Below, piece after piece: positions 4,340 to 23,403 of a stretch of DNA of 23,403 nucleotides. This DNA comes from Pirellulales bacterium. Its GTDB lineage: Bacteria; Planctomycetota; Planctomycetia; Pirellulales; JAIMBC01. The notes beneath the pieces are model-generated. The model had not been told where the DNA came from. It worked only from the letters and a program-made list of their open reading frames with translations, and did not search any database. The translations under genes were made by a program, and so were the position numbers. Position 1 is the first letter of the stretch. Each line of letters opens with the position of its first letter. The stretch spans positions 1 to 23,403 of the forward strand of contig JAIMBC010000068.1 of NCBI GenBank assembly GCA_023511675.1. Direction: 5' to 3'.

Positions 4340-4400
4340 CTACGGCATACCAAGCGTTGGAGCACGGTACAAATGAACACCCGACGAACTCAGAAACCCG

Positions 4401-4819: not shown

Positions 4820-6046
4820 GTGCCTCAGGCTGACACGCTCGACCCGCGGATTCTGGGACAACGCATTGCCGAGGCCCGCAAGGCACGCGGCAAGACGCAG
4901 CAGGAGCTTGCGGAGTTCCTCGGGTGCAGCCGCCCCACGTACATCGCGATCGAGAAGGGAGACCGCCTACCCCATACGGAAGAGATCATCAAGCTCGCCG
5001 CCTTCTTGGGCAAGAAGGTGAATGATCTCGTCCGACCTACCGAGCCGGTGGTGGATCTCCAGCCCCACCTGCGGGCCGTCGCCGAGAAGATGAAGGGGGG
5101 CGACCAGGCCGCACTGCAGGCCACCATCGCCGATCTTCAAGAGCTGGCGGAGGACTACCGAGAGCTGGAGCGAATGATGCACGCGCCGCTGCCGTCCCAT
5201 TACCCGGCTGAGGTCGCACTCGACAGCCGCATCGACGCAGCCCAGCTCGCCGAGAGCGTTGCTGATCAGCAACGGTGCCGGTTGGGGCTGGGCGATCAGC
5301 CGGTCATCTACCTCCGCAGCACGCTGGAGTGGGAGGTGGGCCTGCGCATCTTCTACTCCAGCCAGTTGCCCTCGGCCGTTGCCGGAATGTACGCGTACAC
5401 CGCCGACCTCGGCTGCTGCATCCTTGTCAACCGCAAGCACCCGCCCGAGGGCCGCCGCGTCTCGATGCTGCACGAGTATGGCCACCTGATCGTGGACCGC
5501 TACAAGCCGGGCATCGACTACCTCACCCTGAGCGGGCGGAAGACCGCCAACGAGCGGTTCGCCGAGGCGTTCGCGCTCGCCTTCCTGATGCCCGCCGCTT
5601 CCGTGCGGCAGCGCTTCCATGAGATCGTGACGAGGACGAAGGACTTCCTGGTGCGCGACCTGCGGTACCTGAGCCACTTGTACTACGTCTCGGTCGAGGC
5701 GATGGCGAGGCGTTTGGAGGAGCTGGGACTGATTCCGAAGGGGAGTTGGCAGTTCCTCAAGGAAGCTAGCTTTGCTCCGCAACAGGCGGCGGAACTGCTT
5801 GGCCTGCCGCCGCAGCCGACCAACGACCGTCCGTACCCAGAGCGGTACATGTACTTGGCTGTACACGCCTATGAGCGGGGTGAGATCGGCGATAGCGATC
5901 TGGCCCACTACCTGCGGTGCGACATCGTTTCGGCCCGAGAGATCGTCGCCCGCACGCTCATCAGTGCCGGTGAAGTAGGCGAGACGGGAGAGAAGAAACA
6001 GATGCGGCTCGACTTCAACCGCTCGCTGTTGAGCGGGTCTTCCTGA
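4820..6046 (+). CDS. Fusion of an XRE-family HTH transcriptional regulator with an ImmA/IrrE-family (COG2856) zinc metallopeptidase
   Basis: A GTG start at 4820 follows AAGGAG (4808-4813) with 6-nt spacing. The N-terminus (LGQRIAEARKARGKTQQELAEFLGCSRPTYIAIEKGDRLP) is a canonical Cro/C1-type HTH. The HEXXH motif lies in MLHEYGHLIVD, followed by the helical C-terminal region typical of COG2856 proteins. Confidence 0.85.
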   Translation: MPQADTLDPRILGQRIAEARKARGKTQQELAEFLGCSRPTYIAIEKGDRLPHTEEIIKLAAFLGKKVNDLVRPTEPVVDLQPHLRAVAEKMKGGDQAALQATIADLQELAEDYRELERMMHAPLPSHYPAEVALDSRIDAAQLAESVADQQRCRLGLGDQPVIYLRSTLEWEVGLRIFYSSQLPSAVAGMYAYTADLGCCILVNRKHPPEGRRVSMLHEYGHLIVDRYKPGIDYLTLSGRKTANERFAEAFALAFLMPAASVRQRFHEIVTRTKDFLVRDLRYLSHLYYVSVEAMARRLEELGLIPKGSWQFLKEASFAPQQAAELLGLPPQPTNDRPYPERYMYLAVHAYERGEIGDSDLAHYLRCDIVSAREIVARTLISAGEVGETGEKKQMRLDFNRSLLSGSS

Positions 6047-6063: not shown

Positions 6064-6600
6064 ATGGCCCACGCGGCGATCGATGCCTGCTGTCTGATCG
6101 ACTTGCTGGCCGGGGGGCACGTGGAAGAGATCCTGCGGGCGGCGGGCTTCGACTGGCACCTGCCATCCGCCGTGCAGGGCGAGGTCCGGCACGTGCGCCG
6201 GTACAACACGGCCCAGCCGGGCCAGTTGCTCGGGGTGGATGTGGATCTGTCGCCGCTGATCGCCTCGGGCGTGTTGCAGCCGTGCGGCCCCAGCAACCAG
6301 ACGGAACAGGACTGCTTTGTGCGGTACGCTGCCCAGTTCCGCTCCGAGGGGGAGGCCATGTGCCTGGCCCTTGCCGAGCAGCGCAACTGGACGCTGGCAA
6401 CCGGCGACCGACGGGCCATCTGCATCGCGCGGCAAGCCGGCCTGAGCGTAGTCAGTTGCCCTGTGCTGCTGAAGCGGTGGGCAGATGCGACTCAGCCCGA
6501 TCAGGCCACGCTGTCCAAGGTGCTGAGGGACATTCAGGTGCTCGCCCAGTTCAGGCCGAGTCCGTCCATGCCCGAGTACCAGTGGTGGCTCGATGCATGA
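6064..6600 (+). CDS. PIN-like nuclease domain protein (resembles the DUF4411-type PIN-like proteins found next to ImmA/IrrE peptidases); putative toxin/effector partner
   Basis: The start at 6064 follows agaggggggg and lies 17 nt after the upstream stop. The N-terminus AIDACCLIDLL is a PIN beta1 with the first Asp. Further acidic positions lie in ..VQGEV.., ..EGEAMCLALAE.. and ..LATGDRRAICIARQAGL... The size (178 aa) and operon position fit. Confidence 0.6.
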   Translation: MAHAAIDACCLIDLLAGGHVEEILRAAGFDWHLPSAVQGEVRHVRRYNTAQPGQLLGVDVDLSPLIASGVLQPCGPSNQTEQDCFVRYAAQFRSEGEAMCLALAEQRNWTLATGDRRAICIARQAGLSVVSCPVLLKRWADATQPDQATLSKVLRDIQVLAQFRPSPSMPEYQWWLDA

Positions 6601-6835: not shown

Positions 6836-8128
6836 CTAGATCGCCGGCAGCTCGAAGCCCTTGCGATATTCGCGGGAGAGGTAGCGGTTGGCCTCGTCGT
6901 CGTGGGGGAAGGTTTCGGTGTGGGGGTCGAATTCCAGGCGTCGGCCTGTGCGGTAGGCGATGTTGCCCAGGTGGCAGAGCAAGGAGGAGTAGTGCCCCTC
7001 TTCAATGTCGGCGATGAGATCCTCAGCGCGGCGGCTCTTCACACAGTCGACGAAGTTCTGGTAGTGGCGGGGCGAGTCGTGCCATGGCTCGCCTGCCGTA
7101 GGGCCGGGCTCGCCGCCGCGGAAAAAGACGCGGTAGCCGTCTCGATCGATCATCAAGAAGCCGCTTTCGCCAAAGAAGATATTGTCGTTGTCATGTCGGT
7201 GGCCGGGCATGCGGTAGGGGGTGAAGTCGCGCTGTTCGTAGACGAACAGCAGGTCGTCGTATTCCCAGGTGACGACCATAGTATCGGGCGTCTCCTGCGC
7301 ATCGCCCCGCGAGCCGAGCTTGGCCCCGCTGGCCGAAACCGCCTTGGGAGCCTTCAGGCCCAGCGCCCAGCGGCCCAGGTCGATCTGGTGCACGCCATCG
7401 TTGCCGATGTCTCCGGTACCGTACTCCCAATGCCAGTGCCACCCGCCGTGGAAGCGGTTGTAGTTGAAGGGACGTTGGGCGGCGGGCCCAAGCCAGAGGT
7501 CGTAATGCACGCCCTCGGGCACAGGCTCGTCTGGGCGGGCTTCCAGGCGGCCGCGCCGCTGGTTGTTGATGGCCTTGACCAGCAGCACCTTGCCGATAAT
7601 CCCCTGCCGCAAGAGTTCCCAGGCCTGCTGGTAGTACGGCACTGCTCGCAGGTTGGTGCCGTGCTGGACGATCCGGCCGTACTTGCGTGCGGCGGTCACG
7701 GCCAGGCGGCCTTCCACAATGTTGTGAGAGGCGGGCTTCTCCACGTAAACGTCCTTGCCGGCCAGGCAGGCCAGAATGGTGGCCGGGGCATGCCAGTGGT
7801 CGGGAGTGGCAATGGCCAGGGCGTCCACGTCCGAGCGGTCCAGCAGCGTGCGAAAGTCGACCACCAGCGGAGGCGCCTTGCCCTGAATGGCGCCGATCTC
7901 CTCGGCCAGCTTGTAGCCGCGGCCCTCGTCCACCTCGCAGACGGCGACCACCTGGCTGTCGGGAAGCGCGGCAAACTGCCGCGCCAGTGCCGCGCCCCGG
8001 CTGGCGCCCAGCACGGCCACGTTCACACGCTCAGAGGGAGCTCTCTTGGCTCCGGCCGCGCCGGCGGCCAGCCAGCTCACGGCCGCAGCCGTGCCCCGCA
8101 GCACGTCTCGTCGAGATAGGGTGTCCAT
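6836..8128 (-). CDS. Gfo/Idh/MocA-family NAD(P)-dependent oxidoreductase with a twin-arginine (Tat) signal peptide (possibly a GH109-like glycosidase)
   Basis: The start MDTLSRRDVLRGTAAAVSWLAAGAAGA (ATG complement of 8126-8128) follows GAGGAG. The sequence carries the SRRDVL Tat motif, the Rossmann stretch VNVAVLGASRGAALARQF and the family EKP motif (DVYVEKPASHN). The track start at 8230 is rejected. The overlapping plus ORF 6812-8119 is antisense junk. Confidence 0.85.
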   Translation of the reverse strand: MDTLSRRDVLRGTAAAVSWLAAGAAGAKRAPSERVNVAVLGASRGAALARQFAALPDSQVVAVCEVDEGRGYKLAEEIGAIQGKAPPLVVDFRTLLDRSDVDALAIATPDHWHAPATILACLAGKDVYVEKPASHNIVEGRLAVTAARKYGRIVQHGTNLRAVPYYQQAWELLRQGIIGKVLLVKAINNQRRGRLEARPDEPVPEGVHYDLWLGPAAQRPFNYNRFHGGWHWHWEYGTGDIGNDGVHQIDLGRWALGLKAPKAVSASGAKLGSRGDAQETPDTMVVTWEYDDLLFVYEQRDFTPYRMPGHRHDNDNIFFGESGFLMIDRDGYRVFFRGGEPGPTAGEPWHDSPRHYQNFVDCVKSRRAEDLIADIEEGHYSSLLCHLGNIAYRTGRRLEFDPHTETFPHDDEANRYLSREYRKGFELPAI

Positions 8129-8320
8129 CTCAGTCTCCTCGCTGGCGGATCTTGGAGCCGGATACCAGCGCGCTCTGCGTGCAGGACGCGCAAGCTGCCC
8201 GCTAGCATACCTGCCGCTGCCCGCGCGCACACCCGTTTTGCAGTCAGACTCGCCCGACCGCTAGCCGGAGGCACCGCTCATGCAGCCGCCCCTCAACAGC
8301 TCGCCCACTGCACGAGCGGC

Positions 8321-9544
8321 TTATCCGCTCGCCTCCCCGCCCTGCTCGGCGTACAGGCGCTGCGCGATCTCTTCGGCGTGAAACACCATCCAGGCCTGCT
8401 CCGTGTACACGGCGTGGCCGGCCAGGTGCCGGTAAATGGGCCTGGTTTCGGGACCATAATCGACCAGCAGAGTCGTGCCGGCATTGTGAACGCGTATGCC
8501 CAACGCCAGGCGGGCCGGCAGCTCGCGAGCCCGCAAGTGGGGTTGCAAGAGGCGGTGCAGTCGCCGCTCTGCCAGCCACAGCCGCGGGCGGATCCAGGAG
8601 GGAGGCGTGTTGGTGCCGGCAATGCCGAACTGCTGCACGTAGTCGCCGCCGGCAGCCGCCTGAACATCGGCCAGGGTGGGGGGCCAGGCGGCCTGCCAGG
8701 GTTCCCGTCCGGCTACAGGACGATGATGGATGATGTGCAACAACCGCGAGAATCCCCGCGGCTGCCAGCCGTAGCGCACGGGCGTGCCCAGGGTAACGAT
8801 GTCGAGCCCAGAGGGGTCCGGCCGTGGCACGGTTGGGGCGGCAACTGGGCGTTGCCGGTCGGCCACATCGTCGGACGCCGGTGGGGTGTGGCCGAGCAAC
8901 GCTTGGCGCACGCGCTGCCAAACGGGAATGTCCACGCGGCCGGTGAGCGGGTTGCGGTAGAAGGGCTCACAGGCGGTGAAGAAAGCCGAGAGTTGCTCGG
9001 GTTGGCCGCCCAGCAGTTGGGTGACCAGGGCCAGCACATTGCCTCCGTGGCTGTGCCCCCAGAGCAGCACGCGCTGCGGCTCAGGCGGCCAGGTTGTTGC
9101 CAGTTCGTCGATCAGGCGCACGGCGGCATCGGCGCGGGCAAGGTGGTAATTGCCACTGGACCAGAGAAACCGCCGCACGGCGATGGGCGGGCCGCCTGCG
9201 GTCAACTGCCGTTGCAAGAGGGCTGCGTACTGCGGCGTGTAGTTAGCCGCTTCTCCCTGGAGGCGATCGACCAACCCCTTGAATTGCCTGACCAGGGCGC
9301 GATGCGCTCGCGGCAGCCAGCGTTCAAGCTGCACCAGCGCCCCCAAGGCGTCGTAGCCGGCAAAGGTGCCGTGCAAAAGATAAATGACCGACACGTGTGC
9401 CGCCCGAAGGAGATCTCCGGTGCGGGCCAGGCGGGCACTCCCCTCCTCAGACTCAGGGGCGGGGCAGGGCGGCGCAGCCAGAAGCTGGTAGCGCGAAGTG
9501 GGGGGCCCCGGTTGGTACGGCTGGTGCAGCAGCGGGGCTGACAT
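8321..9544 (-). CDS. alpha/beta-hydrolase fold protein (esterase/lipase-like)
   Basis: The 407-aa ORF has the nucleophile elbow GHSHGG (GxSxG) in ..RVLLWGHSHGGNVLALV.. and the stretch VIYLLHGTFAGYDALG near the N-terminus. The overlapping plus ORF 8378-9541 has an antisense-like composition. Confidence 0.65.
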   Translation of the reverse strand: MSAPLLHQPYQPGPPTSRYQLLAAPPCPAPESEEGSARLARTGDLLRAAHVSVIYLLHGTFAGYDALGALVQLERWLPRAHRALVRQFKGLVDRLQGEAANYTPQYAALLQRQLTAGGPPIAVRRFLWSSGNYHLARADAAVRLIDELATTWPPEPQRVLLWGHSHGGNVLALVTQLLGGQPEQLSAFFTACEPFYRNPLTGRVDIPVWQRVRQALLGHTPPASDDVADRQRPVAAPTVPRPDPSGLDIVTLGTPVRYGWQPRGFSRLLHIIHHRPVAGREPWQAAWPPTLADVQAAAGGDYVQQFGIAGTNTPPSWIRPRLWLAERRLHRLLQPHLRARELPARLALGIRVHNAGTTLLVDYGPETRPIYRHLAGHAVYTEQAWMVFHAEEIAQRLYAEQGGEASG

Positions 9545-9663: not shown

Positions 9664-10554
9664 TCATGTCGCCGGCAAGGAACTCGTGCTTGGCCAGCAC
9701 CGTCTGAAGGCGCACGCCGCCACGTACCGCCGTTGAAACACACCTGGTTCAGCTTGGCCGCGTCGGCAATGCTGGCAAGCGGCCTCACGGCTTTCAGAGT
9801 GGTGCGTGCGGCCGTACACGAGTAACGCGCGACGCTTACGGAAGTGCTGCCCGCCAAGGGCATAGTGGCGGCAAGAGGTTGTGGGCTGCACGCACAGGCC
9901 CGTCAGCCACTGCACAAGGTGCGCCGCCCAGCGAATCGAGTTTCGCTTGCTGAACGTGAACAGCCGCTTCAGGCCATCGATCCTGTCGGCCGGGTTCCGA
10001 GTGTCGTGGGCACGCGCCGAAGGCAACTGCAAGAAGCGATCTGTCGGTCCGTCGCTGGTCAGCTTGCTTGCCGGTGGAGCGGCCAACGTGTTCGTCGCCG
10101 CTCTATCTCCCAACATGGCAACGCATGTACGGCAGTAGGCCATGGGGGGAACGGTAGAACACGCCAGAGCGAAGATGCCAACCCCTCGTGCAGGCGAAGT
10201 GTCTGCCGTGGCAGCAGGCCGCGCAGCAGATGCCAGATGGTCGATCTCGCAGATCTGCCATGCAAATAGCGTCACCTAACGAGACAAATCATGCTGCCAG
10301 GTGGTGAATATTGGTGAATATTGTTGCTGGCCAACGCGCGCGAGGATAGAGTGGAAGTGATGCAGACGGGTTCCTCCGAGGTGCCAAGATGCGTGCTGCT
10401 GCACGCCGATTGAGAACCTCTGGGGAGCCGAGGTTGCGTTGAGCAGGATTGCCTGCGCAGCCGTCGGCGCCGCGAGCATGCCCTCTGGGCACGCGTTGGC
10501 AATGGCGGTGTGCAACCACTCGATGAGGCCCGTGCTTCCAGCGCGAGGCTGCAT
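9664..10554 (-). pseudogene. Possible decayed gene: one reverse frame runs for about 297 codons with a single in-frame TAG (complement of 10276-10278); unrecognised
   Basis: Track ORFs 10276-10554(-) and 9664-10275(-) are contiguous in one frame and separated only by a stop. The composition is poor (Arg/Cys/Ser-rich) and I recognised no motif. The stretch lies in a 1.4 kb span without credible genes. Confidence 0.15.
10301..10321. repeat. Tandem direct repeat GGTGAATATT x2
   Basis: Direct reading of ..ccaggtggtgaatattggtgaatattgttgctgg.., a locally AT-rich spot in the gene-poor region. Confidence 0.6.
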
Positions 10555-10710
10555 GGTCTTGCTAGCTCGCGCCCGCGACAGTTTTTAGGGCAGGGCTGGC
10601 ACGGCGTTGCCGCCTCGCAAGGCCTTGTGCCGTTTGCAACCTCGCAATGACGATTTCGGACTGGGTTGAAGAGAAACGCTGCAACCCACGGGGACGGAGT
10701 CCGCGCCATG

Positions 10711-10739
10711 GTCAGAACCTTGCCGTAGTCAGAACTTTG
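10711..10739. promoter_or_regulatory. Direct repeat GTCAGAAC(C/T)TTG x2 (spacer 5 nt), about 300 bp upstream of the first cluster gene; candidate regulator binding site
   Basis: gtcagaaccttg (10711-10722) and gtcagaactttg (10728-10739). Its position at the head of a co-directional 10-gene cluster is the only functional hint. Confidence 0.25.
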
Positions 10740-11033
10740 TGGGGCGTTCGCCTCATCTCCGCAGCATGACGGCATCGCGCGCGTACAGCCGCTCGCCTCT
10801 GCGATGCCCGTGAGACTTGACTCTACCCCATTCGCTTGGCGGCTTGGCGCCGCTGGCGCGTTTCACCTCGTATCAGGGTTTGGGTTTTTGCGCCGACGCC
10901 TTGGCGCAGCAGCTTGCTGCGCTAGCGGCGTTTGACCTGCACATGTTGCCGCACCAAGGGCCCTTGGGTGCCGGGGGGCGGCCATGCAAGGCGGCCACAT
11001 CGACGCGTATCTCTGGTTTATCGAAAGGCAGCC

Positions 11034-13277: not shown

Positions 13278-13415
13278 TCGGCCGATGCCTCGCGTCCTGT
13301 CACCGCGAGGACGTCGGCACCCATCTCCTCTGCTTGGCAAGAGTTTGGGGGCCCTGGCGGCCATTCGCCCGGACGTGCCTGGCGGGCCCTCGAGTTGAAG
13401 CACGAGCACGTGGAC

Positions 13416-14312
13416 ATGGCCACCCTGCCGCAAACAGCCGCTGTAGTCCCCGACTTGACCGTGATCATCCCCGCTTACAACGAGGAAGCAGGCATCGTCC
13501 CCACGGTCAACGAGCTGCGCGCGGCCCTGGCGGGCGTGCCGCTGCGGAGCGAGCTGCTCGTGGTGGACGACGGCTCTACCGACGGCACCGCCGCCGCCGC
13601 AGAAGCCTTGGGCGTGCGCGTGATCCGCTTGCCCAACAACGAGGGCTACGGCGCGGCCATCAAGGCCGGCATCCGCGCTGTGCCTGCCGATCTGATCGCC
13701 ATCATCGACGCAGACGGCACCTATCCTCCCGCGGCTCTCGCCAAACTTGTCCATGCCATGGCCGACGCAGACATGGCCGTGGGCGCACGCGATATCCAGG
13801 GGCGCAACATCTCGTTCTTCCGCCGGCCGGCGAAGTGGTTCCTGAACTGGCTGGCCGGCTATCTGGCCGGACGCAAGATCCCCGACGTGAACTCCGGATT
13901 GCGCGTGATGCGCGGCAGCCTGGTGCGTCAGTTCCTCCCGCTGCTGCCCGCGGGCTTCTCCTTCACCACAACCATTACCCTCAGCATGCTGTGTACGGGC
14001 CGCCGCGTGCATTACGTGCCGATCGAGTACCGTGCCCGCGTGGGGCATTCGAAAATCCGCCCCGTGCACTTCACGGCCTTTCTCGTGCTTGTGCTGCGTA
14101 CGGTGATGCTGTTCAACCCGCTCAAGGTGTTTCTTCCGCTGGGCGGGCTGGTGTTTCTGGTGGGCATGGGCAAGCTGGTCCAGGATCTGGTGCTGAAGAA
14201 CCTTTCCGAAACGGCCGTGATGGCCTTTCTCTCCGCGCTGGTCATCTGGTCGCTGGGGTTGCTGGCAGACATGGTCGCCCGCACGCAGCTATTGCGGAAT
14301 GGATCGAACTAG
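13416..14312 (+). CDS. GT2-family polyprenol-phosphate glycosyltransferase (DPM1/GtrB/ArnC-like) with C-terminal TM helices
   Basis: The N-terminus LTVIIPAYNEEAGIVPTVNEL..LLVVDDGSTDGT..IRLPNNEGYGAAIKAGI..DADG.. shows the GT-A hallmarks (DDGS, DAD). The C-terminus carries two hydrophobic helices, as in GtrB/ArnC. The ATG at 13416 is preferred over the track's TTG at 13395; the start is uncertain (GTG at 13410 is also possible). Confidence 0.85.
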   Translation: MATLPQTAAVVPDLTVIIPAYNEEAGIVPTVNELRAALAGVPLRSELLVVDDGSTDGTAAAAEALGVRVIRLPNNEGYGAAIKAGIRAVPADLIAIIDADGTYPPAALAKLVHAMADADMAVGARDIQGRNISFFRRPAKWFLNWLAGYLAGRKIPDVNSGLRVMRGSLVRQFLPLLPAGFSFTTTITLSMLCTGRRVHYVPIEYRARVGHSKIRPVHFTAFLVLVLRTVMLFNPLKVFLPLGGLVFLVGMGKLVQDLVLKNLSETAVMAFLSALVIWSLGLLADMVARTQLLRNGSN

Positions 14313-14325
14313 GGAGGCACGCCGG

Positions 14326-15405
14326 ATGTGGGAGGCACCGTCATGGCGGCACGCCGGCGAGGGGAACGCAGGGATGCGGCCGCCTCGCGGCGTGCGCGCG
14401 ACAGGCCGCGCATGGGTTGCCGCCGCGCTGCGGCTGGCGGCCAGCGCCGTGCTGCTTTCCGGTCTCTGGATGGTTCTGCCGCGACAGCGGCTGGTGGCGG
14501 CCTTGGCAGGCGTGCCCTGGGCGGCCTGGGCTGCCGCGGTGCCGGCCTTTTTGTTGTTGCACCTGCTGGGTGCCTGGAAGTGGCGGTGGACGGCCAATCT
14601 GGCCGGCAGCGGCCTGCAATTGCGTGACGCCGTCCGCTGCTACTATGCGGGGCTGTTCGGCAATACTCTGCTGCCCTCGATTGTGGGCGGAGACGTGTTG
14701 CGGGCAGCCCTGGCGTGGCGGCGAGTGCGTTCGCCCGCCGGGCTCGTGCTGGGCAGCCTGGCCGACCGCATGCTGGACGTGCTGGCACTGGCCGTGCTGG
14801 CCGCAGGGGGGGGTGTGTTGGCCGCCAGCGAGGCAGGTACTGCCACACCCCTTGTGTTCGGCTCGTTGCTGGCCGGCGGTCTGGCCGCCGCGCTGGTGCT
14901 GGGAGCAGGGCTGTGGCTGTTCAGATTTCGCAAGCTCTCGTGGCGGTGGCGCCGCAAGTTGGCACTGGCGCGGCGTGCGGGGCGGCTGTTGTACCAGCAA
15001 CGTGCGCGGCTGCTGGTGAGTCTGGCAGCGTGCACGATGCTGCAAATGGGATTGATGGGACTCAACCTTTGGCTAGCCAGTTTTTGCGGACTGCGCGCCG
15101 CATGGCGGGTGTGGCTCTTTGCGTGGCCCCTGGGAAAGCTGGCGGCCATGGTGCCGGTGACGCAGGGCGGCATCGGCATCCGCGAGGCTGCGCTGGCAGG
15201 CCTGTTGCGGCCGTTTGGCGTGCCGGCGGCGCTTGCCGTGGCAGCCAGCCTGGTGTTTGAAGGCGTGATCATTCTGGGCAGTCTGGCCGGCGGATTGCTG
15301 GCAGTGTGGCTCGGCCGCTGGGGGAGCCCTTGCGTGGCGCAGCACGGGGTGGCCGCAGTACCGGGTGTGCGTGCGACTGCGTGGGAGGCACCGCATGCAG
15401 GCTGA
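14326..15405 (+). CDS. Polytopic membrane protein of the lysylphosphatidylglycerol-synthase-TM / UPF0104 'flippase-like' family, the usual partner of GT2 DPM1-like enzymes
   Basis: The ATG at 14326 lies 8 nt after AGGGAGG (14311-17) and 13 nt after the GT2 stop. The protein has multiple hydrophobic helices, Arg-rich loops and the family-like motif ..PLGKLAAMVPVTQGGIGIREAALAGLL... The track start 14299 lies inside the upstream gene. Confidence 0.7.
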   Translation: MWEAPSWRHAGEGNAGMRPPRGVRATGRAWVAAALRLAASAVLLSGLWMVLPRQRLVAALAGVPWAAWAAAVPAFLLLHLLGAWKWRWTANLAGSGLQLRDAVRCYYAGLFGNTLLPSIVGGDVLRAALAWRRVRSPAGLVLGSLADRMLDVLALAVLAAGGGVLAASEAGTATPLVFGSLLAGGLAAALVLGAGLWLFRFRKLSWRWRRKLALARRAGRLLYQQRARLLVSLAACTMLQMGLMGLNLWLASFCGLRAAWRVWLFAWPLGKLAAMVPVTQGGIGIREAALAGLLRPFGVPAALAVAASLVFEGVIILGSLAGGLLAVWLGRWGSPCVAQHGVAAVPGVRATAWEAPHAG

Positions 15406-16903
15406 CGAGCGTGCGCCACAGGTTGCGGATCGCATGCCCGCGGCATCGCAGGCGATGGAGTTGCAACCGCGGGCAGGCGCGGCGGCCCGGCCGCACATTG
15501 CCGTGCTGGGTGCGGGGCCGGCGGGCGTGGCGGCAGCGTGGCAACTGGCGCGCCGCGGCCTGGCGAGGGTCACGGTGCTGGAGGCGTGCGACGCTCCCGG
15601 CGGCAACGCGGGGAGTTTCGAGTTGGAGGGAGTGTATTGCGATTACGGCAGCCACCGGCTTCATCCGGTGGTAGAGCGGCGGATTCTGCGGGATCTGCGC
15701 GAGCTGCTGGGCGACGAGCTATTGTTGCGCCAGCGGCGCGGGCTGATTCGGCTGGGGGGCCGATGGATTCGATTTCCCCTGCGGCCGTTCGATCTTGCGG
15801 CGAAGCTACCGCCGCGCTTCCTGCTGGGCGTGATGCTGGATGCGGCGCGGAGGTTCGTCCCTGGGGGGAATCATCAGCCGGAGACATTTGCCTCGGTGCT
15901 GCGGCGCGGGCTGGGAGACACCATCTGCCGCGAATTCTATTTTCCCTATGGGCGGAAGATCTGGGGAGTGGAGCCGGATGCGTTGGACGCGGCTGCGGCG
16001 CGGCGGCGCGTCTCGGCGGGGACCGTGGGCCGCATGCTGCGCAAGGTGGCGGGCCAGCTCCCTGGCCTGCGTTCGGCCATGGCGGGAAAGTTCTACTATC
16101 CCCGCCGGGGGTACGGGCAGATCAGCGATGCCTTGCATGCCGCGGCGGTGCGTGAGGGGGCCGAGTTTCGCTTCGGCGCCCGGGTCACAGCCATTGAACG
16201 TCAGGCGAACGGCGTCGCCTGCGTGCGCTTCGAACAAGGGGGCTGTGAGCAGCGCTTGTCGGCAGATTCCGTCTGGTCCACGCTGCCGCTCAACTTCACC
16301 CTGCGCTGCGTGCAGCCTGCTGCCCCGCCCGAGGTGCTCGCCGCCGCCAGCCGCCTGCGCTTTCGCGGCATGCTGCTGATTTACCTTGTGCTGGCACAGC
16401 CGCGGTTTGGCGATGCCGACGCGTATTATTTTCCCGAGCCAGACATTCCCATCACGCGGCTCTCGGAGCCGAAGAACTATTCGGGTGCCGATGCACCGCG
16501 CCACTGCACCGTGTTGTGCGCGGAACTTCCCTGCGACTCGCAGGACATGCTCTGGCAGCAAGACGACGCCAGCCTGGGACGCAGCGTTTGCCAGTGGATC
16601 CGCGCCGCGGGCCTGCCGCTGGCGGATACGGTGCGGCGGGTGGAAACGCGCCGGCTGCCGCACGCCTATCCGATCTACGACGTGGGGTACGCGCAGCACC
16701 AGCGGCGGGTGGAGGAGTGGCTGGGAGGCATCGAGGGCCTGGTACTGCTGGGGCGGCAAGGGCTGTTCGCACACGACAACATCCACCACACGCTGGCCAC
16801 GGCCTATGCGGCAGCGGACTGCCTGGGCGCAGACGGCTGCTTTGACCGGCGGCGCTGGGGCGAGTGCCTCGAGCGTTTTCAAGACCATGTGGTCGAAGAT
16901 TGA
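15395..16903 (+). CDS. FAD/NAD(P)-binding flavoprotein, a paralogue of gene 11034-12938 (Glf-like superfamily) without the membrane tail
   Basis: It has the HIAVLGAGPAGVAAAWQLARRGL dinucleotide fold. GGNAGSFELEGVYCDYGSHRLHP parallels GGLARTESYKGYHFDMGGHRFFT. The ATG at 15395 overlaps the upstream stop (TGA 15403-15405), and alternative downstream ATGs are possible. Confidence 0.8.
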   Translation: MQADERAPQVADRMPAASQAMELQPRAGAAARPHIAVLGAGPAGVAAAWQLARRGLARVTVLEACDAPGGNAGSFELEGVYCDYGSHRLHPVVERRILRDLRELLGDELLLRQRRGLIRLGGRWIRFPLRPFDLAAKLPPRFLLGVMLDAARRFVPGGNHQPETFASVLRRGLGDTICREFYFPYGRKIWGVEPDALDAAAARRRVSAGTVGRMLRKVAGQLPGLRSAMAGKFYYPRRGYGQISDALHAAAVREGAEFRFGARVTAIERQANGVACVRFEQGGCEQRLSADSVWSTLPLNFTLRCVQPAAPPEVLAAASRLRFRGMLLIYLVLAQPRFGDADAYYFPEPDIPITRLSEPKNYSGADAPRHCTVLCAELPCDSQDMLWQQDDASLGRSVCQWIRAAGLPLADTVRRVETRRLPHAYPIYDVGYAQHQRRVEEWLGGIEGLVLLGRQGLFAHDNIHHTLATAYAAADCLGADGCFDRRRWGECLERFQDHVVED

Positions 16904-18055
16904 ATGGCAGACATGAACATCCTGCAACGCATCGCACGCCACGTCCGCCTGACGCTCAAGAGCTACCGGCCTGCCAGCACGCCGCCCTTTCTGGTGCTGT
17001 TCATCAACTCCATCTGCAACATGAAGTGCGACCACTGCTTCTACTGGCAGCAGCTCAATCAGCGCGATGACTTGACCTTCGAGGAGCTGGTGCGGCTCTC
17101 GGAGGAGCTAGGACGCGTCGAAACGTTGAACCTGTCCGGGGGCGAACCATTCTTGCGCAAGGAGTTCGCGCCCATCTGCCGCCAGTTCATCCGCCGCAAT
17201 GGCGTGCAAGAGATCTACGTGCCCACGAACGCCTATTACACCGAGCGGACCGCCAGCGCCGTCCGCGACGTGTTGCAGGAGCGTTCGCTGCGGCTTTTGG
17301 CAGTGGAACTCTCGCTCGACGGCATGCCGGAGTTTCACGACACGTTCCGCGCCACGCGCCATGCGTTTGCCAGAGCCATGGATACCTATGAAGCGCTGGC
17401 AAGGCTCCAGCAGCAGGACCGCCGGCTGCAGATCCATGCCAACTCCTGCGCCACCCAGCTCAATATGGAAGAGATCAAGCGGCTGACCACCTATCTGTTC
17501 GACCGCTGCCCGCAAATCTCGCACCATAATCTGGCCATCATCCGGGGCGATCGCAAGAACCCGACCCTGCAAGGCCCGGCGCTGGAGGAGTACCGCGCCC
17601 TCTACGCCTACATGCGCCGCTTATGGGCGCCGCGCGAGGCGGCACGCCTTGGCGCCATTGTGGAACCGATGTTGCAATGGACCAAGCTCAAGGCCGCCGA
17701 GACGCAGGCCCAGTACGTGCCCTGCCGGGCTGGCGTGTTGAGCGCCGTGATCCATGCCAACGGAGACGTGGCCGTTTGCGAGCAGCGTCCGCCGATCGGC
17801 AACCTGCGGCGGCAGACGTTCACCGAGATCTGGCAGTCTCACGTGGCGCAGCAGGTGCGGTGCTCGATTCGCGCCAAGGAATGCTACTGCACCAATGAGG
17901 TCTTCATGTGGCCGAGCATCGTGTTCCAGCCCGCGCACCTGGTCAGGGCGATGGTCGGAGCGAGGGCGTGGCAAAAGGCCTCGCCGCTACCCCAGCAGGA
18001 ACGCGCCGCTTACGCGGACGCGGTCGATGTGCCCGCCAACCACAGAGCTTCCTAA
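16904..18055 (+). CDS. Radical SAM enzyme with a C-terminal SPASM/twitch-type auxiliary cluster domain
   Basis: The CxxxCxxC motif lies in [17 protein letters not shown] Gly-rich SAM motif sits in [11 protein letters not shown]-terminal Cys cluster spans ..[36 protein letters not shown]... The start ATG immediately follows the upstream stop (tgaATG at 16901-16906). Confidence 0.85.
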
Positions 18056-18151: not shown

Positions 18152-19276
18152 ATGACCACTGACCGCAACGAGGCCGAACACCTCTCCCCTGCTGGACGAT
18201 CCGCCGGCGGCGACGCGCAGCCTCTCCTCCAGGACAGCGTGCCGTCGATCACGTTGATCGATCCTTCGGTTGCAGCCAGCAACCTGGGCGACTTCATCAT
18301 CATGGAGGCCGTACGCCGGGAGCTGGCGGAGCTGCTGGCCCGGCTACGCTGTTTCACGGTGGCCTCGCACGAACGCATGACGCGCTTCAGCCGCGGCCTG
18401 ATACGCCAGTCTGCCGTTGCCATCGTGGGGGGCACCAACCTACTTAGCTCAAGAATGTGGTTCCGCTGCCCGTGGAAGCTGACCCCGCTGGACGGACTGC
18501 TCTGCCGGCGGATCGTGCTCATGGGCTGCGGCTGGTACCAGTTCCAGCGCCGGCCCGACCCGTATTCCCGCTGGCTGCTGCGGAGCATCCTCAGCGCAAC
18601 GCACGTGCATTCCGTGCGAGACAGCTACACGCTCGCCAGGCTGCGGTCGATCGGCATCACCAACGCGCTCAACACGGGCTGTCCCACGCTGTGGTCCTTG
18701 GACCCAGAACGATTGCGTACCATCCCCGTGGAGCAGGGCCATGCCGTGCTCACCGCGCTCAACACCTACTTTCCCAACCGCAGGCTCGACGGCGAGTTGC
18801 TCCAGCTCCTCTGCCGTGCGTATCGCAAGGTCTATCTCTGGCCGCAGAACCCGGCCGATTACCCTTATGTCCGGCAGTTCGGTCTGCGCATCCACTATGT
18901 CGACCCCACCTTGCAGGCACTGGACGAACTGCTCGTGCGCGAGGCAGGCATCGATTACGTGGGCAACCGCCTGCATGCGGGCATTCGTGCCCTGCAACAC
19001 GGCGTGCGTTCGCTGATTGTGGAGGTCGACAACCGCGCACAGATGATGGGGGCTGATTTTGGCTTGCCCACGGCGGCGCGGGCGGATCTGGCGGGTATTG
19101 CCCGATGGATCGAACGCTCCCCTCCGCTGGCGCTGCGCCTGCCGCGGGCGGCGATCGATGAATGGAAGCAGCGGCTTTGGGCATCGCTGGGCATCGTTGA
19201 GCCGGCTGGCGGTGCGGTGGCGCGTGCCTACCAGCCGGCGGCGCGCAGGGCGGAGTGCGGCAGCCATGATTGTTGA
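18152..19276 (+). CDS. Polysaccharide pyruvyl transferase family protein (CsaB/WcaK/ExoV-like)
   Basis: The N-terminal ITLIDPSVAASNLGDFIIMEAVRREL fits the family's NLGD motif. ..VGNRLHAGIRALQHGVRSL.. fits the C-terminal conserved block. The match rests on recall of the Pfam PS_pyruv_trans pattern. Confidence 0.65.
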   Translation: MTTDRNEAEHLSPAGRSAGGDAQPLLQDSVPSITLIDPSVAASNLGDFIIMEAVRRELAELLARLRCFTVASHERMTRFSRGLIRQSAVAIVGGTNLLSSRMWFRCPWKLTPLDGLLCRRIVLMGCGWYQFQRRPDPYSRWLLRSILSATHVHSVRDSYTLARLRSIGITNALNTGCPTLWSLDPERLRTIPVEQGHAVLTALNTYFPNRRLDGELLQLLCRAYRKVYLWPQNPADYPYVRQFGLRIHYVDPTLQALDELLVREAGIDYVGNRLHAGIRALQHGVRSLIVEVDNRAQMMGADFGLPTAARADLAGIARWIERSPPLALRLPRAAIDEWKQRLWASLGIVEPAGGAVARAYQPAARRAECGSHDC

Positions 19277-20931
19277 GGCCGGAACGCTTCAGGACGGCGC
19301 TGAGGTGGCAGCGGACGTCTGCATTATCGGAGGGGGGGCTGCGGGCATCACGCTGGCCCGCGAGCTGTCCCACACCAGATTGCGCGTTTGCCTCCTAGAA
19401 GGCGGCGGCCTGAGCTACGAGGCGGAATCGCAGGCGCTGGCAGCCGGCGAAACCAGCGGCGTGCCCTATTTCGACCTGGCGGAAAGCCGGTTCCGCATGC
19501 TGGGCGGCAGTACCTACCGTTGGGGTGCACGGGGACGCCCCATGCAGCCGATAGACTTTCAACAGCGGCCTTGGGTACCGCTGAGCGGGTGGCCGATCTC
19601 GCTAGCGGAGCTGGAACCGTATTATGATCGGGTCCACGAGCTGATCGGCTGGCACAGGCCGTTCCACTTCGACGGAGGCGTGTGGCGGCATTTCGGCACC
19701 CAGCCGCCGCCACTGGATGAGCGGAGGCTGGCATACTGTGCCTTCCAGTTTGGCAAGACGCTGCTGTTCGGCACGCACTTTCGCAAGCCGCTCGAACAGG
19801 CCGCGAACGTGCGGGTCTATCTGCACGCCAATGCCGTGTTGCTGGCAGCCAACGGAGCGGGGAATCATCTGGAAGCGGTCGAGGCGCGCAAGCCTGGCGG
19901 CAGCTTCCGCGTGCGGGCTAAGTACTATGTGCTCGCCTGCGGCGGTATCGAGAACGCCCGACTGCTGTTGCTGTCCAACGACGTGGTGCCCAGCGGCCGG
20001 TGCAACGAACGGGACCTGGTGGGCAGGTACTTCATGGAGCATCCAACCTTCACGGCAGGCGAGCTGGAGACGGCCGATCCGTGGCGCGTGCTGGATCTGT
20101 TCACGCCCGGCCTGTTGCGCCGTAGGCTGGTCGAGGTAGGCATGTGCCTTTCTCCCGAGGTGCAGGGCGCGCGACGTTGTTGCAATGCCGTTGTGCACGT
20201 CAAGCCGGTCGTTGACGGCGACGCCACGCAGGCACTGCGAGAGCTGCTGGCCGGACTGGTGCGGCGGCAGGCGCCGGACCACACGCGCCGCCTCTTGCGC
20301 ACCCTGCTACGCGACCCGGGAGGAGTGATGGCCAACCTGTTACGCCACGCGCTGGGCCGGCCCAAGCGCTTCCGCATCCAAGGGCTGCGCGCAGAGGTGC
20401 GCACGGAACAGGAGCCAAATCGCGCCAGCCGCGTGACGCTGGCTGAAGCTCGAGACGCCCTGGGGCTCCGCAAGGCGCATGTGCACTGGGTACTGTCCGA
20501 ACGAGACCGCCTCACCATGCGCGTCATGGCCGAGGTGTTTGGCCAGGAGATGGAGCGTCTCGGCCTGGGACGCCTGCTGCCAGGCGCCTGGATCAGGGAG
20601 CACTCTGAAGCCTGGCCCGCTCACCCGGGTTTGCACTACCATCACCCCCAACTCCGCCAGCCCCAACGCACAAGACAGCGGCTGGCCCCCGGACCTGGTC
20701 GGCGGCCACCACCACATGGGAACCACCCGCATGCCGCAGTCCCCGCACGATGGAGTGGTAGACCCAGACTGCCGCGCACACGCCGTGGACAATCTGTTCA
20801 TCGCGGGAAGTTCCGTGTTCCCCACAGCGGGTTTTGTCAATCCCACCCCCACCATCCTGGCCCTGACCCTGCGGCTGGCCGAGCACATCAAGCACCGTTG
20901 TGCCCTGCCAGGCGCTGACGGGGCGCCGTGA
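19266..20931 (+). pseudogene. GMC-family FAD oxidoreductase (choline-dehydrogenase-like) interrupted by an apparent +1 frameshift between about 20617 and 20700
   Basis: The N-terminus DVCIIGGGAAGITLARELS..RVCLLEGGG..RMLGGSTYRWGARGRP is GMC-like in frame 0 (ATG 19266), and that frame stays plausible to ..GAWIREHSEAWPAHPG (about 20630). The conserved GMC C-terminal block GHHHMGTTRMPQSPHDGVVDPDCRAHAVDNLFIAGSSVFPTAGFVNPTPTILALTLRLAEHI is only in frame +1 (track ORF 20479-20931). C5, C4 and C5 homopolymers lie in between (20645-49, 20661-64, 20686-90). Confidence 0.7.
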
Positions 20932-21019: not shown

Positions 21020-22426
21020 ATGAGCATCATGTCCCAGGCAGTGGATGTATCCCAACTGCTGAACGAGGGTTCGTATTACATACTGGACCAATACGCGCTG
21101 CGCGAAGAGATGTATGCCAAGGTGGTGGACACCTTCCTGGACGGCGTGGCCGCGATTGCCGGCCGGGCGTGCCGCGATCGCGTGGCCGCAGCGGGTTTAG
21201 GACAACTGCACAGGTTTTTTCCGGTGGAGGATGTGCTGCTGCTCGAGGACTACTTGCTGCGCCGGCTGCGCAACGACCTCTATTACTGGTCGTTCCGGGT
21301 GGGGCGCGAGACTCTGGGCCTGGCTGGCACCTTCTACGTCGACTATTTGATTGTGATTCGTATCCACTATCCGTTCATGATTGCCCGGCAGGCGCGGCGA
21401 GTGAAACATCCGGCCAAGTCCCTGAAGGAGCAGGCACGTCTGCTTCTCGCCGCCGCCCGAGACTGGCGGCTGCTGGCCAATCTGCTGGGCAAACGCCTGC
21501 GAACTCTGTTTCGCAAGCGCTCCCGCAAGGACTCCGGCGCTTTCAACCCCAACGATTATCATCGCAGCCTGCCTGACCCGGCCCGCTCTCACGGCCCGCA
21601 TGTCGACACCTGGTACGGCCACTCGTACGATGGCGTCAACCTCTGGTGGGCCATCGATGGCGTCAACGAAGACAATACTGTCATTCTCTATCCCGAGGTG
21701 TTTGGACACACACTCCCCTTCGATCCGCGGAGCATGTACGTGGCCCCCGGCATCACTCTGCCCCGGCCTGTCAAGCCCGCGCTGGAGCCGGGCCAGCTCC
21801 TGGTCTTCAATCCAGAAACACTGCACGGCACGCAGGTCAATATTTCGGACCGCACGCGCGTGGTCATCAGCACGAGGCTCAACCCGGACGTGCCCCGCTT
21901 CGACCCCCACGCCCCATTTCACTTCGAACATTGGTTCAGCTCCCAAGATCTGGAGCAGCGTCGCTTCGGCAGGATCCGCGTGTTTGCACGCACCAAGTAC
22001 CAGGGACGGCGCAGGCAAGTGCGGCCGCGCGCCCCTCTTCAGGAGACCCCGGCAGCCATCGCCTGCCCGCAAAGCGCAAGGCTGGGCCAGCCGGTTCGGG
22101 TATGTGCCTCGCGCGAGCTGGAGCAGGGCGGCCGGCTGGCCGTGGACCTGGAGAACGCCAGGCTGCTGTTGGTTCGTTGCGGGAACGCCGTGGTGGCATA
22201 CTCGAGGGTGTGCCCCCATCTGGGGATCGATCTGGCCGACGGCCACTATGACGGGACACGAGTGTTCTGTCCGGGACATGGGATTGCATATTCGGTTGAG
22301 GACGGGTCATCTGGCTGTGCAGCATTTCGCCTGCGTGCGTATCACGCCTTTGAGCAGGATGGGGCCATTTTCGTGGAGCCGGCGGGGGCGGATGCGGCGT
22401 CCTGTCCGGTGGCGACGCAGGAATGA
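21020..22426 (+). CDS. Fusion protein: phytanoyl-CoA dioxygenase (PhyH)-like Fe(II)/2-oxoglutarate oxygenase domain plus a C-terminal Rieske [2Fe-2S] domain
   Basis: The PhyH-like motifs are HVDTWYGH (HxD) and later LHGTQVNISDRTRVVISTR (H..N.S..R). The Rieske motif is CPHLG, then 15 residues, then CPGHG, in ..YSRVCPHLGIDLADGHYDGTRVFCPGHGIAYS... The ATG at 21020 is preferred over the track start 20900. It has no strong Shine-Dalgarno site, so the start is uncertain (in-frame GTGs lie at 20966 and 20972). Confidence 0.65.
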   Translation: MSIMSQAVDVSQLLNEGSYYILDQYALREEMYAKVVDTFLDGVAAIAGRACRDRVAAAGLGQLHRFFPVEDVLLLEDYLLRRLRNDLYYWSFRVGRETLGLAGTFYVDYLIVIRIHYPFMIARQARRVKHPAKSLKEQARLLLAAARDWRLLANLLGKRLRTLFRKRSRKDSGAFNPNDYHRSLPDPARSHGPHVDTWYGHSYDGVNLWWAIDGVNEDNTVILYPEVFGHTLPFDPRSMYVAPGITLPRPVKPALEPGQLLVFNPETLHGTQVNISDRTRVVISTRLNPDVPRFDPHAPFHFEHWFSSQDLEQRRFGRIRVFARTKYQGRRRQVRPRAPLQETPAAIACPQSARLGQPVRVCASRELEQGGRLAVDLENARLLLVRCGNAVVAYSRVCPHLGIDLADGHYDGTRVFCPGHGIAYSVEDGSSGCAAFRLRAYHAFEQDGAIFVEPAGADAASCPVATQE

Positions 22427-22446: not shown

Positions 22447-23403
22447 ATGAACGGAGCCGGGCTACACGTGGGCATTGATGCCACTACCTGGTCGAACGAT
22501 CGCGGCTTTGGCCGGTTTACGCGAGAGTTGGTGGCGGCACTGGCCGTACGGCAGCGTGGCATCCGCTACACGCTGCTGTTCGACCGGCCGCCGCAGGGGC
22601 GGCTGCCCGAGGGCGTACAGGTGATCTGTGCGGGCACGGACCGTTCGCTGAATGAGTCGGCCGTAGGCGATCGCTCCCGGTCGTTCGCCTATTTGTGGCG
22701 GATGGGGCGAGCGGCAGTCCGCGGCGGATTCGACCTGTTTTTCTTTCCCGCTGTCTATTCCTACTTCCCGATCCTGTCGCGCATACCCTGCGTGGTCTGC
22801 TACCACGATGCCACGGCGGAGCGCATGCCGGAGTTGTTGTTCCCCAACCGCTGGAACCAGCGGTTGTGGCGGCTGAAGACAGCGCTGGCGCGCTGGCAGA
22901 CGGCGCGAGCCATGACCGTCTCGCGCACCTCGGCCGAGGATCTGCACCAGCTTCTCGGTATTCCCAGGGAGCGCATTGATGTCGTGACCGAGGCGGCGGA
23001 TCCCGTGTTTTGCGTGTTGGAGGACGCCACGGCGGCACGGCGTGCGCGGCAGCGGCATGGAATACCCCTTGCGGCGGAACTGCTGGTCTACGTGGGCGGC
23101 ATGAACCGCCACAAGAACGTGCTGGGCCTGTTGCAGGCCATGACTCGTGTCACTGCCGCGCGGCCAGCGGTGCACCTGGCCGTGGTGGGCGACACGTCGG
23201 GACAGGGTTTCTGGGACAACGTTCCCGAACTGCTGCGCTTTGCGCAGAGCCAGGCATCCCTGCGGGAACATGTCCATTTTACAGGCCGTGTGGAGGATGC
23301 TGAGCTGGTCGCCCTGCTGAACTCGGCCGCGGCGCTGGTCCTCCCTTCGTTGTGGGAGGGTTTCGGCCTGCCAGCCGTGGAGGCCATGGCCTGCGGCTGT
23401 CCG
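22447..23403 (+). CDS. GT4-family (GT-B) glycosyltransferase; N-terminal roughly 319 aa, running off the window end
   Basis: The ATG at 22447 lies 20 nt after the upstream stop. The open frame to the window end translates MNGAGLHVGIDATTWSNDRGFGRFTREL.. and ends ..LVLPSLWEGFGLPAVEAMACGCP, the EX7E/GT4 signature region. It is absent from the track because it is incomplete. Confidence 0.85.
   Translation, partial: MNGAGLHVGIDATTWSNDRGFGRFTRELVAALAVRQRGIRYTLLFDRPPQGRLPEGVQVICAGTDRSLNESAVGDRSRSFAYLWRMGRAAVRGGFDLFFFPAVYSYFPILSRIPCVVCYHDATAERMPELLFPNRWNQRLWRLKTALARWQTARAMTVSRTSAEDLHQLLGIPRERIDVVTEAADPVFCVLEDATAARRARQRHGIPLAAELLVYVGGMNRHKNVLGLLQAMTRVTAARPAVHLAVVGDTSGQGFWDNVPELLRFAQSQASLREHVHFTGRVEDAELVALLNSAAALVLPSLWEGFGLPAVEAMACGCP

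Follow-up and report, generated by a model that had tools for sequence, protein, structure and literature searches.

Few oxidative enzymes have been studied as intensively as the Fe(II)/2-oxoglutarate (2OG) oxygenases, which are considered self-sufficient: their electrons come from 2OG itself. What, then, is the role of a Rieske [2Fe-2S] domain in the same polypeptide as such an oxygenase? This question is raised by a gene on a 23,403-nucleotide stretch of DNA from a Pirellulales bacterium (contig JAIMBC010000068.1 of assembly GCA_023511675.1; this whole stretch is referred to below as the window). The list of open reading frames (ORFs) and a codon check placed the gene on the + strand, from an ATG at 21020 to a TGA at 22424-22426, encoding 468 amino acids (aa). 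The longest form of the ORF opens at a GTG at 20900; in an alignment, close homologues begin at the ATG at 21020 instead. The initial annotation had described the product as a PhyH-like oxygenase of roughly 330 aa joined to a Rieske domain of roughly 110 aa. Both domain assignments held in tests with hidden Markov models (HMMs), profiles and structures, and the fusion proved to be a real, conserved protein and no artefact.

Pfam profiles matched the protein at aa 189-281 (PhyH, PF05721; 27.1 bits against a gathering cutoff of 22, E = 6e-6) and at aa 358-430 (Rieske, PF00355; 48 bits against a cutoff of 20.3, E = 1e-12). An AlphaFold2 model, built on a 46-sequence alignment, reached a pLDDT of 89.7 and a pTM of 0.88. 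In the model and in structure comparisons, the double-stranded beta-helix (DSBH) and the linker ended near aa 345-355 and the Rieske domain covered approximately aa 356-456, which left the proposed division of the protein about right. The pTM value, obtained across two domains, argued for a fixed relative arrangement in the predicted structure. The inter-domain linker is partly conserved, with G329 invariant in close homologues. The fusion protein has no signal peptide. Third-position GC content of the fusion gene (0.75) was somewhat below that of its neighbours (0.79-0.87), and the segment 21001-22000 had the lowest GC content of the window (0.61).

A search of 5.8 billion proteins yielded 174 matches, and the following figures rest on the best 120 of these 174. 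Almost all were 440-480 aa long and 45-98% identical to the query over at least 93% of its length. A precomputed Rieske match was present in all but one of them; a precomputed PhyH match was absent from many homologues of the fusion protein. The homologues belong to the Alpha- and Betaproteobacteria, the Gemmatimonadota, the Acidobacteriota and the Planctomycetota. Closest to the query were P0001, a JGI protein of 98% identity, and a protein encoded on metagenome contig FWPU01005677 (77% identity); an exact-sequence lookup gave no record of the window protein itself. When one genome for each species was scanned, 33 loci were identified, in the same two proteobacterial classes, in Gemmatimonadota and Acidobacteriota, and in a metagenome-assembled genome of the Pirellulaceae; their three cultured carriers were Rhodobacterales HKCCE2091, Croceibacterium salegens and Polymorphobacter arshaanensis.

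These homologues bear directly on the possibility that adjacent genes for a PhyH-like oxygenase and a Rieske ferredoxin had been joined by a sequencing error, or that a NirD protein or ring-hydroxylating ferredoxin subunit had been mis-named. Exclusion of a mis-fusion matters because the neighbouring gene for a GMC oxidoreductase carries a genuine frameshift. Moreover, split versions of the pair occur elsewhere, and JGI labels relatives as 'nitrite reductase/ring-hydroxylating ferredoxin subunit', a misleading name; other relatives are named only 'Rieske 2Fe-2S domain-containing protein'. However, the fused architecture, including the conserved linker, is shared by more than 120 independent full-length homologues of 450-475 aa from many assemblies, which excludes a mis-fusion by sequencing error. 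In addition, the structure was modelled confidently as a single unit, and the protein scored 20.3 bits against the NirD model TIGR02378, whose cutoff is 74.65, so that identity as a small subunit of nitrite reductase was rejected. An artefactual origin is consequently considered extremely improbable.

The architecture, which the initial annotation had called unusual, appears to be undescribed. No NCBIfam family model covers it, no solved chain in the PDB holds both domains, and literature searches on Rieske combined with PhyH, 2OG or fusion, as well as on the gene set of the cluster described below, returned nothing on it. Such fusions are not mentioned in a review of Rieske oxygenases (PMC12445004). 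Previously described operons that combine Rieske and cupin genes (PMC2922099) were considered and set aside, as they encode haem-oxygenase-like diiron/cupin systems rather than members of the PhyH-Rieske family. Both parts of the protein are familiar; their obligate combination is not.

The HxD..H..N.S..R signature noted earlier in the N-terminal part was confirmed as H194-V-D196 and H269-G-T-Q-V-N274-I-S276-D-R-T-R280. It comprises the iron ligands H194, D196 and H269 and the residues T271, N274, S276 and R280 of a PhyH-type 2OG motif. In an alignment of 46 full-length sequences (the target and 45 homologues), none of the oxygenase motif positions and none of the four Rieske ligands varied, which is far beyond chance. 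Broader conservation was counted in 88 divergent representatives at 50% identity. H194, D196 and H269 were each kept in 87/88 and R280 in 88/88 of these sequences, position 271 was Thr or Ser in 85/88, and N274 was found in 83/88. W209 (87/88), P118 (86/88), H64 (84/88) and R114 (83/88) were similarly conserved, and a strict regular expression for the motif matched 90 of 101 representatives of at least 360 aa. Conservation of the facial triad and of the 2OG-binding arginine, checked by alignment, thus extended through the whole family. W209 and R114 presumably match 2OG-contacting residues of PAHX. With Ser/Thr at H+2 (T271) and Arg at H+11 (R280), the site for the C5-carboxylate of 2OG is as expected, and the 2OG site is intact on every sequence criterion applied.

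Relationships of the N-terminal domain to known enzymes were consistent with this assignment. Its profile was broadened with distant family members before known enzymes were searched, and then reached MysH (E = 5e-5), PHYHD1, AndA, PAHX, PtlH and leucine hydroxylase by sequence alone. The HxD and H-x-T-x-x-N-x-S-x-x-x-R elements of the target were in register with the family pattern H-x-S/G..N-x-S...R of MysH, PHYHD1 and AndA. Structure comparison identified the fold as a DSBH that resembles PhyH-family 2OG enzymes, including the sugar-acting SnoK/SnoN, KanJ, EvdO1/2, AviO1 and HygX. Residues 1-118 lie outside any Pfam model, and the Pfam PhyH match begins only at aa 189. Membership of TIGR04324 (sporadic carbohydrate cluster 2OG-Fe(II) oxygenase) was rejected, as the score of 24.4 bits, from a local match of only 34 residues, was far under the NCBIfam cutoff of 150.

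An amphipathic insert of 67 residues (aa 119-185) contains 18 Lys/Arg against 4 Asp/Glu residues, a net charge of +14. It was the least confident part of the model (block-mean pLDDT of approximately 60-87 over aa 131-200) and is shortened in distant relatives, whose matches consist of two stretches that skip this segment. The insert may be an element that binds the membrane surface or an anionic substrate; its basic character is consistent with, and no proof of, action at the surface of the cytoplasmic membrane.

In the C-terminal part, the Rieske motif reported by the initial annotation was present as C398-P-H400 and C417-P-G-H420, with a spacer of 16 residues rather than the 15 originally given, still within the canonical CxH-X(15-17)-CxxH pattern. 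A Rieske fold and an HMM score above threshold were both found. The sequences around the ligands (CPHLGI and CPGHGI) lack the disulfide cysteines of bc1-type proteins, a feature of low-potential Rieske proteins. In sequence searches this part of the protein was closest to the ferredoxin subunits HcaC, AndAb and CarAc and not to bc1/b6f subunits, and it resembled electron-carrier ferredoxins of Rieske oxygenase systems (CarAc, NDO, T4moC, BphF). Because of this resemblance to electron carriers, an earlier suggestion that the Rieske domain could be a second catalytic site found no support. The alternative suggestion, a module for redox repair or activation, was compatible with all findings and was strengthened by the near-obligate fusion and the split-gene variants described below.

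The strength of the association between the two domains was assessed by searching the N-terminal domain alone (aa 1-345) against 1.84 billion cluster representatives. This search gave 315 matches at E of at most 1e-3, of which 193 at E of at most 1e-10, corresponding to a family of approximately 300 clusters at 50% identity from several phyla. A Rieske domain was detectable in 106 of the 150 best matches and, among these 150, in 83 of the 88 50%-identity representatives of at least 400 aa; most of the remaining matches without it were fragments or frameshifted. In Rugosimonospora acidiphila, a gene for a 322-aa PhyH-like protein is followed, with a 4-bp overlap, by a stand-alone Rieske gene of approximately 102 aa. 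Streptomyces sp. Ag109_O5-1 similarly carries a gene for a 326-aa PhyH-like protein and a Rieske gene, again with a 4-bp overlap, and a third split locus, on an incomplete contig, probably has the same arrangement. The surroundings of the split genes are not glycan-related and encode a DcsG-like (DcsG_N) ATP-grasp protein, a zinc-dependent alcohol dehydrogenase, a 2-hydroxyacid dehydrogenase, a RyR-domain protein and a large WD40 protein; this conserved cluster may serve the synthesis of a natural product derived from amino acids or peptides. In most lineages the two modules are thus fused, and in the others they are translationally coupled, across different pathways. This pattern is strong evidence for a joint function and speaks against an accidental combination.

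Several very large relatives tie the oxygenase physically to glycan-modifying enzymes. A PS_pyruv_trans-PhyH-Rieske arrangement occurs in a single protein of 1102 aa (P0216) and, together with a glycosyltransferase (GT) domain of family GT41, in one of 1616 aa (P0207). A protein of 1080 aa (P0206) combines PS_pyruv_trans with a weak PhyH-like match, without a detected Rieske domain. PhyH-Rieske-GT2 is found in P0132 (837 aa), and in P0259 (759 aa) a GT4 domain is joined to the region of N-domain homology, for which Pfam itself gave no PhyH match. No reductase domain was found in the long family members, whose extra domains were only PS_pyruv_trans, GT2, GT4 and GT41. For P0179 and P0197, contigs were too short for gene context to be read.

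The fusion gene of the window lies in a conserved cluster for tailoring of a polyprenyl-phosphate-linked sugar or glycan. This cluster is conserved in the 33 loci, which represent five phyla-level groups; neighbour frequencies were determined in the 24 related loci that span 15 kb or more. Most constant were the genes for a pyruvyl-transferase-like protein and a GT4 glycosyltransferase (each 22/24), the latter of which opens, in the window, 21 bp past the stop codon of the fusion gene. The GT2, flippase-like and flavin adenine dinucleotide (FAD) protein genes at 13278..16903 (+) form the conserved core and co-occur in 19-20 of the 24 loci (GT2 and FAD protein, 20/24; flippase-like protein, 19/24). 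Genes for a deacetylase (19/24), a methyltransferase (19/24), Wzx (18/24) and PMT_2 (15-16 of 24) were also frequent, and those for an epimerase (9/24), GMC (7/24) and radical SAM (3/24) were found less often. L001, the locus of a 77%-identical relative, has the gene order of the window and continues with GT2, Polysacc_deac_1, ArnT-like PMT_2, a Wzx-like flippase and GT4. In the Rhodobacterales locus the order is epimerase/dehydratase, GT2, flippase-like, FAD, deacetylase, GMC, methyltransferase, pyruvyl-transferase-like, PMT_2, fusion gene and GT4. The pyruvyl-transferase-like enzyme appears to be the closest functional partner of the oxygenase.

With pathways of the ArnC/ArnD/ArnT, Lgm and Flm types the cluster shares genes for an ArnC/PpgS-like GT2, a deacetylase (Polysacc_deac_1), a flippase-like protein and an ArnT-like GT-C enzyme (PMT_2). 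We take it to resemble such a polyprenyl-phosphate-sugar pathway with extra tailoring. We know of no Arn-, Lgm- or Flm-type pathway with a PhyH-Rieske enzyme, a pyruvyl-transferase-like protein, FAD proteins of amine-oxidase fold or a methyltransferase.

Taken together, the proposed function, to which we assign a probability of about 0.5, is that of a PhyH-family 2OG-type oxygenase that acts on an envelope glycan intermediate and whose Rieske domain is a built-in one-electron donor to the catalytic iron. The protein would be a cytoplasmic two-domain non-haem-iron enzyme. Judged from its sequence, H194, D196 and H269 of the N-terminal domain would ligate Fe, while T271 and R280 would most probably bind 2OG, and the C-terminal domain would be a low-potential Rieske [2Fe-2S] ferredoxin. 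The latter would donate single electrons to the catalytic iron, either within the polypeptide or across subunits, and may have either of two roles: reduction of Fe(III) to Fe(II) after uncoupled turnover, or supply of the two extra electrons needed where the 2OG-driven ferryl species carries out chemistry that is redox-neutral for the substrate. By analogy with CarC, SnoN and AndA, epimerisation at a sugar C-H or a rearrangement would be candidates for such chemistry. The probable substrate is a sugar in an envelope glycan that is nascent or linked to polyprenyl phosphate; this glycan would be built by the GT2, flippase-like protein, deacetylase, FAD oxidoreductase, methyltransferase, ArnT-like GT-C and GT4 of the surrounding cluster. 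The oxygenase would work together with the pyruvyl-transferase-like protein, and the basic amphipathic insert may hold the enzyme at the membrane surface. Of this picture, the two-domain architecture, the folds, the conserved ligands, the obligate pairing and the genomic association are observed, and the use of 2OG, the direction and purpose of electron transfer, the substrate and the reaction belong to the proposal.

Four points weigh against this proposal. The Pfam PhyH match exceeds its cutoff by a narrow margin and extends over no more than the C-terminal half of the profile (positions 108-212). No ferredoxin reductase was conserved in the gene neighbourhoods inspected. A few distant members (representatives P0164, P0169, P0134 and P0216) have altered Rieske ligands (CPH..CPGC, CPH..CPAD, CPD..CAWH) with an intact oxygenase motif; in these proteins the cluster may be ligated differently or be absent, so that redox coupling is perhaps not universal. 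Finally, canonical 2OG hydroxylation is electron-balanced and needs no external electrons. The Rieske domain would therefore serve the rescue of Fe(III), the supply of two electrons in each cycle, or the replacement of 2OG. Because the 2OG motif is intact everywhere, Fe(III) rescue and per-cycle supply are favoured and together carry at least even odds; a complete replacement of 2OG by the Rieske domain is regarded as improbable.

Electron balance, the members that combine degenerate Rieske ligands with intact oxygenase motifs and the lack of a dedicated reductase in the neighbourhood would also fit an ordinary 2OG hydroxylase, whose Rieske domain would act only in occasional rescue of Fe(III), or would be a redox, O2 or iron sensor or a structural module outside each catalytic cycle. 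Against this reading, the four cluster ligands are kept in nearly all members and the split forms keep translational coupling, which argues for strong selection on a functional cluster, and the domain resembles electron carriers and not known sensors. We therefore regard an ordinary hydroxylase as unlikely. The near-obligate association with a Rieske domain of the ferredoxin type is difficult to account for if electrons are required only now and then, and would instead fit a convergent 'Rieske oxygenase' on a DSBH scaffold, in which no 2OG is used and the Rieske domain provides the two electrons with which the mononuclear iron activates O2. There are precedents for its components, as ACC oxidase (ACCO) activates O2 with ascorbate and classical Rieske oxygenases do so with Rieske electrons. 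The conserved Arg and Thr would, in such an enzyme, bind a carboxylate of the substrate, for example of a uronic acid or of a pyruvyl-ketal from the partner pyruvyl transferase. Isopenicillin N synthase (IPNS) and ACCO, both DSBH relatives, use the equivalent Arg for a substrate carboxylate, and the tight link with a pyruvyl-transferase-like partner, expected to introduce a carboxylate, is in line with this idea. Against it stand the complete PhyH-type 2OG motif (H-x-[ST]..N-x-S...R, with Arg at H+11), conserved throughout, the conservation of W209 and R114, and the lack of a conserved nearby reductase for two electrons per turnover. Convergence on a Rieske oxygenase without 2OG is consequently judged to be quite unlikely, and a 2OG-type oxygenase with the Rieske domain as its electron donor is preferred. 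Whether as 2OG enzymes that perform substrate-neutral radical chemistry or as DSBH enzymes without 2OG, members of the family might form a distinct mechanistic class in which Rieske electrons are required in every catalytic cycle, a tentative proposal to which we give somewhat less than even odds.

Comparison with known systems clarified what is specific to this protein. Known PhyH-family enzymes (PtlH, human PAHX, EctD, MysH, AndA/SptF, SnoK/SnoN, KanJ, EvdO1/2, AviO1, HygX) are stand-alone, single-domain proteins of approximately 250-310 aa without an iron-sulfur domain. The target shares only 12-18% identity with them and has, in addition, the N-terminal helical region, the 67-aa basic insert and the C-terminal Rieske domain. 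CarAc, the NDO ferredoxin, BphF/BphA3, T4moC and TodB are free shuttles of approximately 105 aa between an NAD(P)H reductase and a Rieske oxygenase. In contrast to CarAc- and T4moC-type ferredoxins, the Rieske domain studied here either shares a polypeptide with a 2OG-type oxygenase or is translationally coupled with one, and no reductase is encoded nearby. As in the alpha subunits of Rieske oxygenases (NDO, CarAa, SxtT/GxtA, DdmC), a Rieske cluster and a mononuclear iron with two His and one carboxylate ligand are combined in one polypeptide, and electron transfer from the Rieske cluster to the iron is plausible as a functional analogy. In the target, however, the Rieske domain is C-terminal, the catalytic domain is a DSBH rather than a START/Bet v 1-like fold, and the 2OG-binding residues are retained; alpha subunits matched it through the Rieske part alone, over approximately 100 residues. 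A classical Rieske oxygenase was rejected on the basis of this reversed domain order and different catalytic fold, and the evolutionary origin of the PhyH-Rieske enzyme is independent.

CarC is the paradigm of 2OG chemistry that requires a reductant. In stereoinversion by CarC, epimerisation by SnoN and rearrangement by AndA, radical chemistry that is neutral for the substrate leaves the enzyme oxidised, and external electrons are required. SnoN and AndA belong, as does the target, to the PhyH family; unlike the target, all three enzymes lack an electron-transfer domain of their own. SnoN epimerises a sugar carbon, and the rearrangement catalysed by AndA ends with reduction of a radical, for which the 'biological reductant remains unknown' (PMC12006828). 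A similar chemistry in the target is a hypothesis based on analogy.

Table 1. Coordinates of the PhyH-Rieske fusion gene, its domains and ligand codons, of other genes in the window, and of split homologous genes in two other genomes.
Feature	Position	Strand	Basis
PhyH-like oxygenase/Rieske fusion gene, stop codon included	21020..22426	+	ORF, codon check, alignment with 45 homologues, AlphaFold model
Oxygenase domain: N-terminal helical region and first beta-strands (aa 1-118)	21020..21373	+	Secondary structure, pLDDT 95-98
Basic amphipathic helical insert (aa 119-185)	21374..21574	+	Charge, hydrophobic moment, pLDDT
DSBH catalytic core (aa 186-325)	21575..21994	+	Iron ligands and PhyH-type 2OG motif
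Iron ligand H194	21599-21601	+	
Iron ligand D196	21605-21607	+	
Iron ligand H269	21824-21826	+	
2OG motif residue R280	21857-21859	+	
Inter-domain linker (aa 326-355)	21995..22084	+	Alignment; pLDDT 88-95
Rieske [2Fe-2S] domain, ferredoxin type (aa 356-456)	22085..22387	+	Ligands C398, H400, C417, H420
Rieske ligand C398	22211-22213	+	
Rieske ligand H400	22217-22219	+	
Rieske ligand C417	22268-22270	+	
Rieske ligand H420	22277-22279	+	
Amine-oxidase-fold FAD protein with GtrA-like tail, 668 aa	10932-12938	+	Pfam/NCBIfam
Small GtrA-like ORF, 112 aa	12939-13277	+	Weak similarity
Polyprenyl-phosphate-type GT2	13278-14312	+	Pfam; NCBIfam similarity to AglJ, Dol-P-hexose transferase, ArnC, PpgS
Flippase-like LPG_synthase_TM protein	14299-15405	+	Pfam; TIGR00374 flippase-like
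Second amine-oxidase-fold FAD protein	15365-16903	+	Pfam
Radical SAM/SPASM protein	16904-18055	+	Pfam
Polysaccharide pyruvyl-transferase-like gene	18152..19276	+	Pfam PS_pyruv_trans
GMC-family FAD oxidoreductase, frameshifted	19266..20931	+	Pfam; tblastn of intact 537-aa L001 orthologue
GT4 glycosyltransferase, extends past window end	22447..23403	+	Pfam Glyco_transf_4/Glycos_transf_1; 22/24 loci
ABC permease fragment	1-1347	-	
SPFH/Band_7_1 protein	1348-2790	-	
GFO/IDH/MocA oxidoreductase	6836-8230	-	
Further ORF, outside Pfam scan	10272-10775	-	
Split PhyH-like and stand-alone Rieske genes (Rugosimonospora acidiphila, Streptomyces sp. Ag109_O5-1)	L041 6001-7274, L042 7001-8289		4-bp overlaps

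Among the neighbouring genes of the cluster (Table 1), the GMC gene is interrupted between approximately 20645 and 20668: residues 1-460 of the 537-aa L001 orthologue are encoded in one frame and residues 445-523 in the next. The frameshift falls in a variable loop that is also longer in the window, and reflects either a pseudogene or a sequencing error. The 668-aa FAD protein matched NCBIfam PRK07208.1-4 ('hypothetical protein') well above cutoff; its C-terminal membrane segment (aa 566-640) weakly resembles holin_4/GtrA-like proteins. The same weak similarity was found in the adjacent 112-aa ORF, which is conserved in loci L001, L009 and L010. The best NCBIfam similarities of the radical SAM/SPASM protein (NirJ2, ScmE and others) were all far under cutoffs; its presence in only 3 of the 33 related loci suggested that it is an accessory tailoring enzyme of the sub-lineage represented by the window.

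Elsewhere in the window, a gene with HTH_3 and Peptidase_M78 (ImmA/IrrE-like) domains at 4820-6046 (+) is followed by an ORF with a weak PIN-domain match at 6064-6600 (+), a regulator/toxin-like pair that is unrelated to the fusion gene. Five ORFs on the - strand (2947-3588, 3585-4280, 4311-4769, 8321-9544 and 9664-10275) had no Pfam match.

The PhyH-Rieske family touches two questions: what re-reduces the iron of 2OG oxygenases in bacteria, and what feeds electrons to substrate-neutral reactions of the CarC, SnoN and AndA type. In eukaryotic 2OG oxygenases, iron is re-reduced by ascorbate, which, to our knowledge, bacteria lack. The family is a natural system whose architecture itself names the electron donor and, as its 2OG-type domain is almost always fused to or coupled with a Rieske ferredoxin, it makes both questions directly testable. 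It may thereby show how bacteria supply electrons to 2OG-type oxygenases, and it marks a widespread, uncharacterised pathway for envelope-glycan tailoring in Alphaproteobacteria, Gemmatimonadota and other groups.

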